A stretch of DNA of 64,000 nt from NCBI GenBank assembly GCA_903860135.1, contig CAIOPG010000006.1, positions 21,117-85,116 of the forward strand, written 5' to 3'. Made by a program: the position numbers and the translations under genes. A model generated the notes under the pieces. It was not told the origin of the DNA, searched no databases, and saw only the letters and a list, made by a program, of their open reading frames with translations. The DNA is from Candidatus Omnitrophota bacterium. GTDB taxonomy: Bacteria > Omnitrophota > Gorgyraeia > Zapsychrales > Fredricksoniimonadaceae. Shown here piece by piece: positions 11,259 to 14,500 of the stretch (its first letter is position 1; every line of letters begins with the position of its first letter).

Positions 11259-13466
11259 TTGAATATAAGAGTGATAGCGCACAGATGCTTGATGCTTTTT
11301 TTGATGCTGACTTTAGCGGCGTCAGATGTGCGTGTCTATGCGCAGGGAGTTCCCCCACCCGGCACCCGCCTGGCCTTGAGCCCTGTTTTCGCGCCGCCGC
11401 TACTCAAGGGCATCAAGGTGTTCCGCAACGATCCTTTTCGTTTTGATTTCATTTTGGATAAGGGGGATGTCCATCAACCGCTGCCCAGCGAACTTGAAAT
11501 AAAGCGCCTGATCAAATACTTCCTCGCTTCTTTGACGGTGCCCGAGAAAGATTTGTGGGTCAATTTAAGCCCTTATGAAAAAGACCGCATTGTGCCCGAA
11601 GCCTTTGGCCAGACCGAAATGGGGCGTGACTTACTGGCTCAAGACTACATTCTCAAACAGATAACAGCGTCAGTGATTTATCCTGATGAAAAAGTCGGCA
11701 AGGAATTTTGGTCTAAAGTCTATGCCGAAGCTCAGAAACGCTACGGCACCACCGACATCCCCGTCGACACTTTCAACAAAGTCTGGATCACCCCCGCTAA
11801 AGCCACCGTCTACGAACACCAAGACGCCGCCTATGTTGTCGAATCCAGGTTAAAGGTCATGTTGGAGTCCGATTATAAAGCCGCTATAGAAAATAAGGAA
11901 TTCGCACGTAGGGGCGGGTCCGTGACCCGCCCTATTTTATTAAATACGCCCCCAGCGTCACCCGCCCCCGCCGCAGCGTGGGGCGGGCATGGGAGGGGGG
12001 ATGACATCGCCAAACAAGTCCTCCGCGACGTCATCATCCCTATCCTCAACAAAGAAGTCAACGAAGGCCAAAACTTCGCCACCCTGCGCCAGGTCTACAA
12101 TTCCCTTATCCTTGCCACTTGGTATAAGCGTAAAGTCAAAACCAGCATCATGGGCAAGGCGTACGTCGATCAGAAGAAAGTTTCTGGCATTGACATCGCC
12201 GACAAGAACGAAAAAGAAAAGATCTGGTCTCAATATGTTGAAGCTTTCAAGAGGGGTGCTTTTAATCTGATCAAGGAAGAGAAAGACACGACGACTCAAG
12301 AAATGATCCCGCGGCAGTATTTTTCCGGTGGGGCGGATATGTCGATGGAGGTTTTTGAGGTAACAGATGCGGCCATGCCAGCAGAGGTAAATATTGATAA
12401 TTGCAGTATCGTAAATGTTGATGGGGGTATGCTGTTAGTGAATTCCGGTCTATCTAATCGCAAATGGGTAACAACTGATTTATTTGAACACAATCCACGG
12501 AAGTTTATGTATTCTGTAAAAATGTCTGGCCTTGCCAGGCTATTAAAACCACCAGCACAAGGCGATCCAATTTCGTATTCACTTGCTTTGATCAGTGATA
12601 GTTATTTGAAAACATTTAATCGAGGTGGTGGTGGCAATGTTGGATTAGTCTTTGATTTTGCGGATGAGGATGTTCTGGCAATTTTGGCATCGATGAACGA
12701 TATCGCGGCCTTTGATAAGACAGAGGAGACGCAACGTGAATTCATTAAAAAACAATTAAAACGTGATCCTAGTAATGTTATGTATCAAACTATTGTTGAC
12801 AATAGTCCTCCTAGGCAGCTTGCTATTGTGCCTGAAGAATTGATTAGGGCTTCAATCAAGGCAGGAAATAAGAATAATGAAGTAATTGTTAAGAATAATT
12901 TAACTCTGCAACCTAAAGCAATTATCTTGATTGTAAGGTGTCAGGGAGGATCACGTTTGTTTCGGGAAGATGTCGATGCCTTAAAGGTTAATCCAATGTT
13001 AAGTGAGGTCTATTCTGCAATGACAGCTGGGAAATTACCAGTTGTTATTGTCGGTGAAAATGGTTCCCCATTGAAGACTGCTAGGAGAATCTTTAAGCAT
13101 ATGTTTAGGGATCTTCAGGAAACAAGACCGTTCTTTTTTGAAAAGAAGTCTGGCCCATCGCCGGCAAAGTCCGGGTTTATAGGATGGATCGGTGTGTTCG
13201 TGAAGCAAAATCCTTCTGCTATTACACGTATAGATCGTGGCCAGAAGAATAGTGACAATGCCGAGAAGCTTGGCGGTATCGACCTTGATCCGGCCAAGAT
13301 CGACTTAAGTACAAAGAATTCCGGCGGCGAAATTGCGTTCAACCTCGACCCCGCGATGCTCGCCCGTATGCAGCATGCTTCTGGGATTTCGCCTGTTATT
13401 GTCAGTGTGCACCCGATGGAAAGCCTTTCGGCATTTCTGGGGATTGTGAAGCCGGGAGGGCGGTAG
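11259..13466 (+). CDS. Secreted protein of an uncharacterised paralogous family (paralog A, 735 aa)
   Basis: Signal peptide ending VYAQ. A roughly 300-aa N-terminal domain is highly similar to the 54826 gene (LIKYFLASLT, EEDLWVNLSPYE, GTTDIPVDTFNKVWIT, LKVMLESDY, EVNEGQNFA, PR.YFSGG). The last about 40 aa also match (DPAMLARMQ / DPIMVAEFQ). The central and C-terminal portions are AT-rich. TTG start; GTG at 11271 or ATG at 11292 are alternatives. Confidence 0.8.
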   Translation: MNIRVIAHRCLMLFLMLTLAASDVRVYAQGVPPPGTRLALSPVFAPPLLKGIKVFRNDPFRFDFILDKGDVHQPLPSELEIKRLIKYFLASLTVPEKDLWVNLSPYEKDRIVPEAFGQTEMGRDLLAQDYILKQITASVIYPDEKVGKEFWSKVYAEAQKRYGTTDIPVDTFNKVWITPAKATVYEHQDAAYVVESRLKVMLESDYKAAIENKEFARRGGSVTRPILLNTPPASPAPAAAWGGHGRGDDIAKQVLRDVIIPILNKEVNEGQNFATLRQVYNSLILATWYKRKVKTSIMGKAYVDQKKVSGIDIADKNEKEKIWSQYVEAFKRGAFNLIKEEKDTTTQEMIPRQYFSGGADMSMEVFEVTDAAMPAEVNIDNCSIVNVDGGMLLVNSGLSNRKWVTTDLFEHNPRKFMYSVKMSGLARLLKPPAQGDPISYSLALISDSYLKTFNRGGGGNVGLVFDFADEDVLAILASMNDIAAFDKTEETQREFIKKQLKRDPSNVMYQTIVDNSPPRQLAIVPEELIRASIKAGNKNNEVIVKNNLTLQPKAIILIVRCQGGSRLFREDVDALKVNPMLSEVYSAMTAGKLPVVIVGENGSPLKTARRIFKHMFRDLQETRPFFFEKKSGPSPAKSGFIGWIGVFVKQNPSAITRIDRGQKNSDNAEKLGGIDLDPAKIDLSTKNSGGEIAFNLDPAMLARMQHASGISPVIVSVHPMESLSAFLGIVKPGGR

Positions 13467-13533
13467 GCTTATTTATCCGTGTTAAACGGCAAGGGTTCAA
13501 ACGACGATAAATATGACAATTATAAGAAATCGG

Positions 13534-13561
13534 TAGACAATTTGTTCCACATTTGTATAAT
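13534..13561 (+). promoter_or_regulatory. Putative sigma70 promoter for tRNA-Lys (TAGACA, 16-nt spacer, TATAAT)
   Basis: TAGACA 13534-13539. TATAAT 13556-13561. About 30 nt upstream of the mature tRNA 5' end. Confidence 0.4.
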
Positions 13562-13591
13562 ATCGTCTCGCAGTTTTATGCCGCTCCTTGC

Positions 13592-13664
13592 GGGCCTCTA
13601 GCTCATCTGGTAGAGCAAGTGACTCTTAATCACTTGGTACCGAGTTCGACTCTCGGGAGGCCCA
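13592..13664 (+). tRNA. tRNA-Lys (anticodon CTT)
   Basis: Cloverleaf folded by hand: acceptor GGGCCTC/GAGGCCC, D-stem GCTC/GAGC, anticodon stem AGTGA/TCACT with loop CTCTTAA, T-stem CCGAG/CTCGG with TTCGACT loop, discriminator A. Length 73 nt; CCA is not encoded. Confidence 0.85.
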
Positions 13665-13672
13665 CTATTTAG

Positions 13673-13708
13673 AAAAGCCGTATCCCTTTTGGGATATGGC
13701 TTTTCTAT
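13673..13708 (+). terminator. Intrinsic terminator downstream of tRNA-Lys
   Basis: 14-bp stem aaaagccgtatccc / gggatatggctttt with a tttt loop. Confidence 0.6.
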
Positions 13709-13762
13709 TTCTTGAGAGCCGACCGAGAGGAGAAGGAGCCCCGCAGGGCGACTGGAGGGCAC

Positions 13763-13781
13763 CGACTCTCGGGAGGCCCAC
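13763..13781 (+). repeat. Direct repeat of the tRNA-Lys 3' end (19 nt identical, here followed by CCA)
   Basis: cgactctcgggaggcccac at 13763-13781 equals 13647-13665 of the intact tRNA. Confidence 0.8.
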
Positions 13782-13985
13782 CATATTAACGACGAAGAAG
13801 CTTCTCTTTAACTGGGGGAGCTTTTTTGTGATCTTCCCACGAAAAAGTGGACACAACGAAGGGGTGGTGACAGTATGAGAACTAGCTCAAAAAACGGAGG
13901 TGTTCAGTGGCAGGAGAATCGAACAAGAAAAAGCAGTTTGACCGTGAATTTAAAATGTCTGCGGTCAAGACCTGATAGCTCATCT

Positions 13986-14010
13986 GTTGGAGCAAGTGAC
14001 GATTTGTCGA
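13986..14010 (+). repeat. Degenerate copy of the tRNA-Lys D-arm and anticodon stem (23/25 nt)
   Basis: tagctcatctgttggagcaagtgac versus tRNA tagctcatctggtagagcaagtgac at 13599-13623. Confidence 0.75.
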
Positions 14011-14096
14011 GTACAAGGATTATTTGCAGGATATTAGTGAGGCCTCTTTTACAATCTCTTCTTGAGATTGTTGAGCAATAAAAATCATTTCCCCCC

Positions 14097-14125
14097 TTGC
14101 ATTTTCCATAAATAGAGAGTATATT
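14097..14125 (+). promoter_or_regulatory. Putative sigma70 promoter (TTGCAT, 17-nt spacer, TATATT)
   Basis: TTGCAT 14097-14102. TATATT 14120-14125. Confidence 0.45.
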
Positions 14126-14132
14126 TAAAACA

Positions 14133-14319
14133 TAGACAAGGTCTCACTGAGTTGTAAGACCTAACACGGCCGAACAGGCCGTGACATTTATCGGGCAAGG
14201 TTGTCCGTAAATATAAAGTATAGAAGCTTTAGATATAGTCCTGCAAAGGGCTGGCCCAAAAGGGCGGAAGACAAAGACGTCTTCAATTCATCATCAATGA
14301 ATTGAAGACGTCTTTTTTT
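14133..14319 (+). ncRNA. Candidate small structured RNA or leader of about 190 nt (promoter to strong terminator), function unknown
   Basis: Bounded by the 14097 promoter and the 14274 terminator. Internal perfect hairpins ggtctcactgagttgtaagacc and cacggccgaacaggccgtg. No convincing ORF. Confidence 0.35.
14274..14319 (+). terminator. Strong intrinsic terminator
   Basis: 18-bp perfect stem aagacgtcttcaattcat / atgaattgaagacgtctt, loop catca, then a T run. Confidence 0.75.
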
Positions 14320-14500
14320 GTTTCAATGTTGAAAATCGGCAGAAGGTTTCAAATCAGATAAATGGAGGATCTATGGGGAAAGTAAATTGTTTGGGAAGGG
14401 ATTCGCCTTCTGGAGGGAGGTCGTAGCATTGTTGGGCGTGTGTTGTTTTAATAGGGAAGGTAGAAAACAAATCAAAGGTCAATAACAAAGGAGTAATCAC

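Follow-up and report, generated by a model that had tools for sequence, protein, structure and literature searches.

The window analysed here, a 64-kb stretch of the genome of a Candidatus Omnitrophota bacterium, contains a single transfer RNA (tRNA) gene according to both ARAGORN and Rfam, an intact tRNA-Lys(CTT). Downstream of this gene lie two displaced fragments of tRNA-Lys, two terminators and a truncated insertion sequence (IS) of the IS3 family, and it is the origin of this assemblage (13666–14000) that is considered here. An earlier note, made from the sequence alone, had read the fragments as a likely integration or excision scar.

A tRNA-Lys gene and the tRNA-derived pieces downstream of it

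The intact tRNA-Lys(CTT) gene occupies positions 13592–13664 on the plus strand (Rfam RF00005, 64.9 bits; 13592–13665 by ARAGORN). A putative sigma-70-like promoter (TAGACA-16 nt-TATAAT; 13534–13561, plus strand) was located by consensus scan ~30 nt 5' of the tRNA, with 11/12 matches, and would presumably drive its transcription. The 3' end of the gene reads ...GGCCCA-CTA. CCA is thus not gene-encoded, and the resident tRNA-Lys must depend on post-transcriptional CCA addition.

A copy of the tRNA-Lys 3' end is located 98 nt beyond the gene, at 13763–13784 on the plus strand, and consists of tRNA positions 56–73 followed by CCA and a T. The 19-mer CGACTCTCGGGAGGCCCAC (positions 56–73 plus one base) is found at exactly two sites in the window, 13647–13665 in the intact gene and 13763–13781 in the fragment. 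The chance expectation for this 19-mer at up to 3 mismatches is ~0.02, and two matches were seen in 0/100 shuffles. The exact 19-nt copy (19/19) and its CCA, absent from the intact gene, were both as first described. Furthermore, the match could be widened to 21/22 (CCCAC[T/C]AT), with one substitution separating A-CTA of the intact gene from A-CCA of the copy, so that the similarity to the resident gene goes on past the CCA.

The second fragment, TAGCTCATCTGTTGGAGCAAGTGAC, is separated from the first by 195 nt and corresponds to tRNA positions 8–32 (23/25), which takes it from the D arm through the 5' anticodon-stem strand to the first base of the anticodon loop. It is unique in the window, with 0 occurrences expected by chance. 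The note had listed this copy at 13986–14010; the copy is real but lies at 13976–14000 (plus strand), the original placement being 10 nt too far to the right. Neither fragment yields a complete cloverleaf with ARAGORN or Rfam.

Each of the first two tRNA sequences is followed by a terminator. Terminator A (13670–13707, plus strand), found by terminator scan directly after the intact gene, is a 17-bp hairpin with a T-rich tail (fold -28.3 kcal/mol, z -8.7), while terminator B (13792–13829, plus strand) consists of a hairpin and U-tract after the 3' fragment (fold -20.9 kcal/mol, z -4.2). Between terminator A and the 3' fragment lies the remnant of a non-coding region, termed region X (13708–13762, plus strand), delimited by blastn, by repeat spacing and by its conservation in two metagenome contigs, L087 and L098, where it stands 3' of a partial tRNA-Lys. 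The sequence of terminator A plus region X runs TTTAGAAAAGCCGTATCCC...GGAGAAGGAGCCCC.

The stretch 13829–13854 (plus strand), whose first base is also the last of the terminator B U-tract, reads TGATCTTCCCACGAAAAAGTGGACAC and is an IS3-family left inverted repeat. Aligned to the left end of E. coli IS3, TGATCTTACCCAGCAATAGTGGACAC (IS3-family left ends for comparison were fetched from plasmid records), this stretch has a local score of 30, which was reached by 0/1000 shuffles. The open reading frame (ORF) list places the first 22 codons of a putative, truncated IS3-family orfA (MAGESNKKKQFDREFKMSAVKT) at 13907–13975 on the plus strand, behind a GGAGG ribosome-binding site (13896–13900). Both this site and the 78 nt from the element end to the orfA start codon fit the IS3 family. 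The similarity of the peptide to the N-termini of IS3 InsE and IS911 OrfA was reached by 8/2000 and 6/2000 shuffles respectively, and it ranked first among 2190 window peptides against a profile of 8 OrfA N-termini, at a weak E value of 0.17. Pfam gave no match on the 22-residue ORF, no orfB (DDE transposase) coding sequence follows 13975, and the window holds no second copy or right-end partner of the repeat. We conclude from these features that an IS3-family element appears to have inserted exactly where the U-tract of terminator B ends, and to have been truncated later after codon 22. The resulting 147-nt stub (13829–13975) abuts the 5' tRNA fragment. A reading of 13831–13972 as the decayed 3' end of an integrase gene was rejected, as its similarity was no better than that of shuffles and the stretch is accounted for by the IS3 left end.

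All of these features are contained within an intergenic region of 1034 nt (13467–14500) that has short ORFs only, none with family matches. The surrounding 1 kb is therefore non-coding, as had been stated, but it is not featureless given the truncated IS3-family left end. The gene on the 5' side (11259–13466) encodes a 735-residue hypothetical protein without a Pfam domain, from a family greatly expanded in Candidatus Omnitrophota. Approximately half of this protein is a module present in >3000 Omnitrophota proteins, where it is fused to many different enzyme domains, and the G+C content drops to 0.36–0.40 in the 3' part of its gene (12450–13050). On the 3' side lie amt and glnB/K, then the ATP synthase operon; the genes flanking the intergenic region are ordinary chromosomal genes. 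Approximately 180 nt 5' of amt, a series of six or seven hairpins (14136–14322; fold -81 kcal/mol, z -9.5) closes with a perfect 19-bp terminator (14273–14315). It matches nothing in Rfam; candidates for what it represents are a small RNA, a leader and the 3' end of a gene that has been deleted.

The same arrangement is found on a contig from an independent sequencing run (L001), with 0 differences across 6 kb, hence we take it to derive from the same strain. An exact-protein look-up of Amt likewise returned the same strain only. Among 80 species-representative genomes, Amt identity reaches 78% at best, and the closest genomes (75–78%) are labelled Omnitrophota, Planctomycetales or unclassified. 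A tRNA-Lys was found at the Amt locus in 0/10 of the closest or most taxonomically relevant relatives (L002–L004, L006–L008, L010, L011, L037, L042), and the 19-mer in 0/80 of the genomes. Synteny via the upstream 735-residue protein gave nothing comparable, its nearest full-length relatives (55–57% identical) being in other contexts. As a whole-locus comparison with close relatives was thus not possible, the 19-mer itself was used as query.

Related tRNA-Lys loci and their integrases

A metagenome scan with the 19-mer identified four contigs (L088, L091, L094, L095) with an intact tRNA-Lys(CTT) that matches the window gene at ~98–99%. Over the 73 nt of the gene, L091 and L095 do not differ from the window, as seen in the same cmscan alignment, while L088 and L094 match at ~98% over tRNA-Lys including short flanks. 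The terminator and flank after tRNA-Lys differ among the four. CCA is encoded in the DNA by the intact genes of L088, L094 and L095 as well as by the partial copy of L087; L091, like the resident gene, lacks it. With three of the four intact related genes encoding CCA, this is common in the lineage, and the resident CTA differs from the CCA of the relatives by a single base (window 13664–13667). L094 additionally contains an inverted copy of the tRNA-Lys 5' half (332–358, approximately positions 12–38, 24/27) 125 nt downstream of its intact gene, thus 5'-half pieces recur at tRNA-Lys.

Metagenome contig L087 (1234 nt) displays, in the direction of the tRNA, the C-terminus of a PF00589 integrase, a degenerate tRNA 5' half (pseudo-5'-half), a 30-nt spacer holding a small hairpin, and a partial tRNA-Lys that begins at position 31 and ends in CCA. 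Terminator A and region X come next, and past them a Phd/YefM-like antitoxin gene is located. What the contig has of the tyrosine integrase is its catalytic C-terminal portion (PF00589, E 1.3e-18), and the stop codon TGA leads straight into the pseudo-5'-half TAGTAAGTCTGATGGAGCAAGTGA. Two in-frame stops further upstream in the reading frame suggest the gene is probably a pseudogene. The window shares with L087 a block at 13622–13742 (plus strand). It starts at tRNA position 31, the last base of the 5' anticodon-stem strand, takes in the tRNA 3' end and an identical terminator A, and stops 35 nt into region X (120/121 by count; blastn 99.2% over 121 nt, E 3e-56). The single mismatch is the CCA/CTA base. 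The window then lacks 83 nt of region X that are bounded in L087 by two AAGGAGCCCC direct repeats, and after this gap 13733–13773 matches L087 at 90%. Beyond the shared part L087 goes on ...GGAGGGCGCCGATTGTTGGG... and the window ...GGAGGGCACCGACTCTCGGGAGGCCC..., hence the window exits region X into the 3' fragment within a shared CCGA (~13762–13765).

A second contig with the same layout, L098, was reached via integrase homologues. Its tRNA-Lys is a variant that differs in the T arm, and the order is pseudo-5'-half, 30-nt spacer, tRNA from anticodon loop to CCA, terminator and region X, followed by an integrase fragment. The spacers of L087 and L098 are both exactly 30 nt long and 17/30 identical. 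Region X (~430–575 of L087, minus strand; ~930–1090 of L098) contains a perfect 19-mer common to the two contigs, GGGGCGGATGGCCGACCCG, beside a variable hairpin; the two thus share region X while differing in the tRNA-Lys T arm. Region X is missing downstream of the intact tRNA-Lys of L088, L091, L094 and L095, as it is downstream of the tRNA-Lys 3' end with which contig L097 starts. No Rfam family was found for it, Rfam recognising only tRNA in the window region and the related loci, and region X may serve as an arm bound by the integrase or form a structured RNA.

The window 5' fragment resembles the pseudo-5'-halves of these two contigs in its boundaries. In all three (window 13973–14000) TGATA stands just before the D-arm sequence, where the tRNA has CTCTA, and a block AGCAAGTGA is common to them. 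The window fragment and the L087 pseudo-5'-half further share derived features, i.e. the preceding TGA, the change of A21 to G and a mutated G19. All three lose similarity to tRNA at position 31/32, which is also where the tRNA-identical part starts in L087 and L098. As judged from these alignments, the boundary fits a strand exchange in the anticodon loop.

Terminator B is related to other tRNA-Lys loci than terminator A. By blastn, 13763–13829 matches the hairpin directly after the intact tRNA-Lys of L091 at 80% over 75 nt including the tRNA end, and 13798–13829 matches L097, after the tRNA-Lys 3' end at the contig start, at 90.6% over 32 nt. The hairpins of L091 and L097 fold like terminator B despite differing stem sequences. 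Past the terminator lie, in L097, a bPH_2 gene, an integrase fragment and a pair of Gp49-family toxin-antitoxin genes, and in L091 a PIN-domain gene. The homology of terminator B to the tRNA-Lys terminators of relatives indicates that the 3' fragment is the stump of a tRNA-Lys copy with its own terminator. The 19-mer is probably the remainder of a repeat that began at the anticodon loop (~43 nt of tRNA) and was shortened by secondary deletion.

Integrase fragments and toxin-antitoxin family genes (DUF2283, dnstrm_HI1420-family) lie on both sides of the L098 partial tRNA, and both L098 and one ERZ1426827 contig contain several integrase fragments and toxin-antitoxin modules in series. Integrases of the L087 family are also found directly upstream of, and co-directional with, intact tRNA genes for Phe (L099, 7522–8113), Arg (L100, 9558–10016; L101 and L102 likewise), Ser (L103, 3795–4597) and Met (L104, 10001–10740; L105 likewise). 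These tRNA-adjacent integrase genes encode 119–230 residues and lie ~20–80 nt upstream of the tRNA. The 119-residue version is identical on 10 contigs, and nearly all of the 120 best integrase homologues are shorter than 245 residues; such short integrases could be widespread relics or a genuinely small recombinase. L103 additionally has a DUF3854 gene and an HTH_17 excisionase-like gene. This placement of the integrase upstream of the tRNA is recurrent and less usual, and points to elements that bring most of a tRNA with them. In the flanks examined beside these integrases, no far-end repeats of tRNA-Phe, Arg, Ser or Met were found.

A motif GACACC-N5-GACACC occurs in L091 (3298–3314), L094 (375–391), L095 (1437–1453), L097 (90–106) and L098 (633–649). 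Among 105 loci it is limited to these five, all linked to tRNA-Lys, and it is always on the tRNA strand, either shortly past the terminator or ~80 nt before the pseudo-5'-half. It may represent arm-type integrase sites. The motif is absent beside the window tRNA; a window GGACAC was considered as a candidate of this type and rejected as part of the IS3 repeat.

Other matches to the tRNA-Lys 3' end lie outside this group. A 23-nt exact match to window 13760–13782 in L096 (1754–1776) was treated as chance in a database of 241 million records, the contig being unrelated, G+C-rich by eye and without a tRNA. Three contigs unrelated to the window and apparently G+C-rich contain tRNA-Met with the same 21-nt 3' end. 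L089 (6242–6284, 12163–12241) and L092 (10472–10512, 11675–11753) each have an intact tRNA-Met and a partial copy starting in the anticodon loop, 6 kb and 1.2 kb apart respectively, and L093 (929–969) has the partial copy only. The pairs of L089 and L092 look like textbook attachment-site repeats. Viral contigs gave no match to the 19-mer or to the 19-mer of region X.

Taken together, the related contigs show tyrosine-integrase elements of a single family located at tRNA-Lys(CTT) within this Omnitrophota lineage. Such elements seem to bring their own tRNA copy, from anticodon loop to 3' end, and then their own terminator.

Proposed history and competing explanations

We consider it probable that 13666–14000 is the debris of mobile elements that integrated at tRNA-Lys and have since been almost wholly deleted. 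Both tRNA fragments are far beyond chance, and related DNA links both flanks to elements with integrases at tRNA-Lys: L087 does so for terminator A and region X, the homologues of terminator B for the distal flank. The integration origin suspected earlier is thus supported, integrase remnants or fragments being present at tRNA-Lys in L087, L098 and L097. The notion of an excision scar was abandoned, as precise excision restores the site; later deletions eroded the remnants instead. As to the tRNA 3' ends named earlier as targets, the tRNA-identical part of the related partial copies starts in the anticodon loop rather than at the extreme 3' end.

While homologies, junction positions and the absence of an integrase are directly observed, we infer the order of events and which flank is element-derived. 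Elements would have integrated successively at the anticodon loop of tRNA-Lys, with the newest closest to the intact gene. An older element would have left terminator B at its tRNA-proximal end and, at its far end, an integrase-proximal pseudo-5'-half that is now 13976–14000. A younger element would then have supplied the present 3' part of the tRNA, terminator A and region X (13622–13762). Illegitimate deletions may have stripped nearly all else, including one between the AAGGAGCCCC repeats within region X and one that began in region X at the CCGA microhomology and ended within the T-loop of the displaced copy of the tRNA, sparing its last 19 nt (13763–13781). The IS3-family element would have inserted right after terminator B and been truncated by a deletion that now ends at the 5' fragment. 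With neither an integrase nor cargo genes in the window, the remnants are dead, and today only the tRNA and its terminator are likely to be functional.

Several observations weigh against this history. Three or more separate deletions have to be assumed. Genes for an integrase, an excisionase or cargo are absent from the window, and there is no kilobase-sized island body with cargo, the pieces being only 98 nt and 195 nt apart. The search for integrase genes away from the fragments, as the earlier note had advised, used tblastn with the L087 integrase and a profile built on 120 homologues of its family against the six-frame translation, and found none (best E 0.67). Positions 13831–13972, next to the 5' fragment, have no similarity to integrase 3' ends. 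The 5' fragment itself matches the resident tRNA at 23/25 and the L087 pseudo-5'-half at 19/25, so that it could be a displaced native 5' half, and the local score for a tRNA 3' part after 14000 equals the shuffle mean. L087 is short (1.2 kb), its integrase looks broken, and under this history its junction of integrase, partial tRNA and terminator A must itself be tandem. Furthermore, on this single contig the flank of the regenerated tRNA adjoins an integrase remnant and a partial tRNA (120/121), which fits an element origin and a native origin alike.

In a second account of the same kind of relic, which we regard as unlikely, the polarity is reversed. Here terminator A and region X are the native flank, L087 and L098 are right-end junctions of single elements, and 13763–14000 is the rest of one element, placed inside region X by secondary-site integration or rearrangement. 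This account explains L087 and L098 more simply, with no need of tandem arrays, as a series of integrase or cargo, pseudo-5'-half, spacer, tRNA 3' part and native flank would be a normal right-end junction. The broken integrase of L087 fits an integrated, decaying element, and the integrase fragment and toxin-antitoxin genes (L097) or PIN-domain gene (L091) that follow terminator B are as expected for element DNA. However, deletions alone do not lead from a single occupied site to the order in the window (tRNA, terminator A, region X, 3' fragment, terminator B, 5' half), and the predicted tRNA positions 32–55 and right-hand continuation of region X are not detectable after 14000. A native region X is also at odds with its absence after tRNA-Lys in L088, L091, L094, L095 and L097, and with the integrase fragment that follows it in L098.

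Three tRNA-derived pieces in the same orientation within 410 nt, the first two each with its own terminator, would also be left by a decaying tandem array of tRNA-Lys genes that arose by ordinary segmental duplication, without site-specific recombination. We consider this improbable. The two flanks are unrelated to each other, each matching DNA elsewhere that is linked to integrase or toxin-antitoxin genes, and the 5' fragment stops at the anticodon-loop boundary of the related partial copies. It shares TGA, G21 and a mutated G19 with a pseudo-5'-half adjacent to an integrase, and a tandem tRNA-Lys pair was seen in 0 of the relatives found.

A functional RNA is a more remote prospect still, be it a co-transcribed, CCA-ended mimic of the T arm and acceptor or a regulatory structure for amt-glnB. 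Positions 13708–13786 do fold with z -3.5, CCGAGAG pairing with CUCUCGG, and the arrangement is identical in the independent sample L001. However, L001 is merely the same strain (0 differences in 6 kb), the strong terminator A stands between tRNA and fragment, and there is no Rfam family match. In addition, 13960–14050 folds no better than shuffles (z +1.15), region X of the window has lost 83 nt including the block most conserved between L087 and L098, and the region is broken by the IS stub.

The suggestion that a mature, processed tRNA was copied back into DNA to give the CCA-bearing copy, made because CCA follows the discriminator base in the copy and not in the intact gene, is unnecessary and effectively refuted by the CCA encoded in the DNA of relatives (the intact genes of L088, L094 and L095 and the partial copy of L087), by the one C/T change relative to the resident gene with a match continuing 2 nt past CCA, and by a downstream terminator homologous to genomic tRNA-Lys terminators, no reverse transcriptase having been seen although no search was aimed at one.

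Significance and comparison with known systems

The debris reading explains a 1-kb gene-free stretch upstream of amt-glnB, with little import beyond annotation, and cautions against taking a CCA-ended piece for a tRNA-like gene. Remnants of integrated elements are a common kind of genomic fossil and not a new system. In a phylum that is uncultivated and whose mobile elements are poorly charted, the related loci single out tRNA-Lys(CTT) as a hot spot of integration.

It is conceivable, although we hold this only tentatively, that the remnants derive from an undescribed family of small integrative elements of Omnitrophota, whose features are seen only in the related contigs. If so, such elements would have a short tyrosine recombinase immediately upstream of a tRNA or tRNA-like attachment site, the latter composed of a pseudo-5'-half, a conserved 30-nt spacer and the tRNA from anticodon loop to CCA. 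Downstream would follow the conserved non-coding region X, possibly a structured RNA or integrase-binding arm, and the cargo would be mostly toxin-antitoxin genes. Elements of this kind would accumulate at tRNA genes throughout the phylum and decay there, making the window a fossil of that family as opposed to a generic island. The contigs hint at a coherent family, with an integrase beside the tRNA, a split pseudo-tRNA attachment site and toxin-antitoxin cargo, which could merit description.

Among known systems, the IS stub compares with the IS3 group of the IS3 family. At 147 nt it differs in lacking orfB, a right inverted repeat and a recognisable target duplication, and of orfA, which in the family encodes an N-terminal helix-turn-helix (HTH_Tnp_1 type), only 22 codons survive. 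Its left inverted repeat resembles the E. coli IS3 end and starts with TG, the N-terminus of its ORF has the OrfA pattern K-K-x-F-x-x-E-F-K, and a ribosome-binding site and start codon follow, the latter 78 nt in.

The remainder of the locus is best compared with the genomic islands collected in Islander, whose documented features include a regenerated tRNA with a displaced fragment, anticodon-centred attachment sites, 5' fragments and tandem arrays (PMC4383910). Islands that displace a 5' tRNA fragment account for 159/3919 (PMC4383910). In contrast to these, the window 5' fragment lies downstream of the intact tRNA with no regenerated tRNA to its right, and no far-end fragment was found in the related loci examined. 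Like theirs, the window 5' half ends at the anticodon loop, and the integrases upstream of intact tRNA genes (L099, L100, L103, L104) are placed as if the element supplies the 5' half.

Tandem arrays of at least two islands number 125 in Islander (PMC4383910). Recognised members keep integrase and fragment, whereas the window holds only junction remnants from which an array may be reconstructed. The resemblance lies in the successive tRNA pieces of the window, which carry different flanks, and in the serial integrase fragments and toxin-antitoxin modules of L098 and the ERZ1426827 contig.

By the Islander principle for islands and prophages integrated at tRNA genes by tyrosine integrases, the window has an intact target tRNA and displaced, same-orientation fragments of it on the same replicon (19/19 and 23/25, both on the plus strand). 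No integrase lies between the tRNA and a fragment, the island body is gone and the 3' fragment is down to 19 nt. Given the missing integrase and body, the locus is not itself an island and is best called a relic of tRNA-integrated islands with an IS3 stub. The anticodon loop is the commonest sublocation of tRNA-targeting integrases (2083/3919 Islander islands; PMC4383910), such anticodon-centred attachment sites forming class A of Williams 2002, as summarised in PMC4383910. In keeping with this, the partial copies of L087 and L098 begin in the anticodon loop and extend as far as the 3' end, the element would supply a replacement 3' half with its own terminator, and PF00589 integrases adjoin the tRNA pieces in the related contigs.

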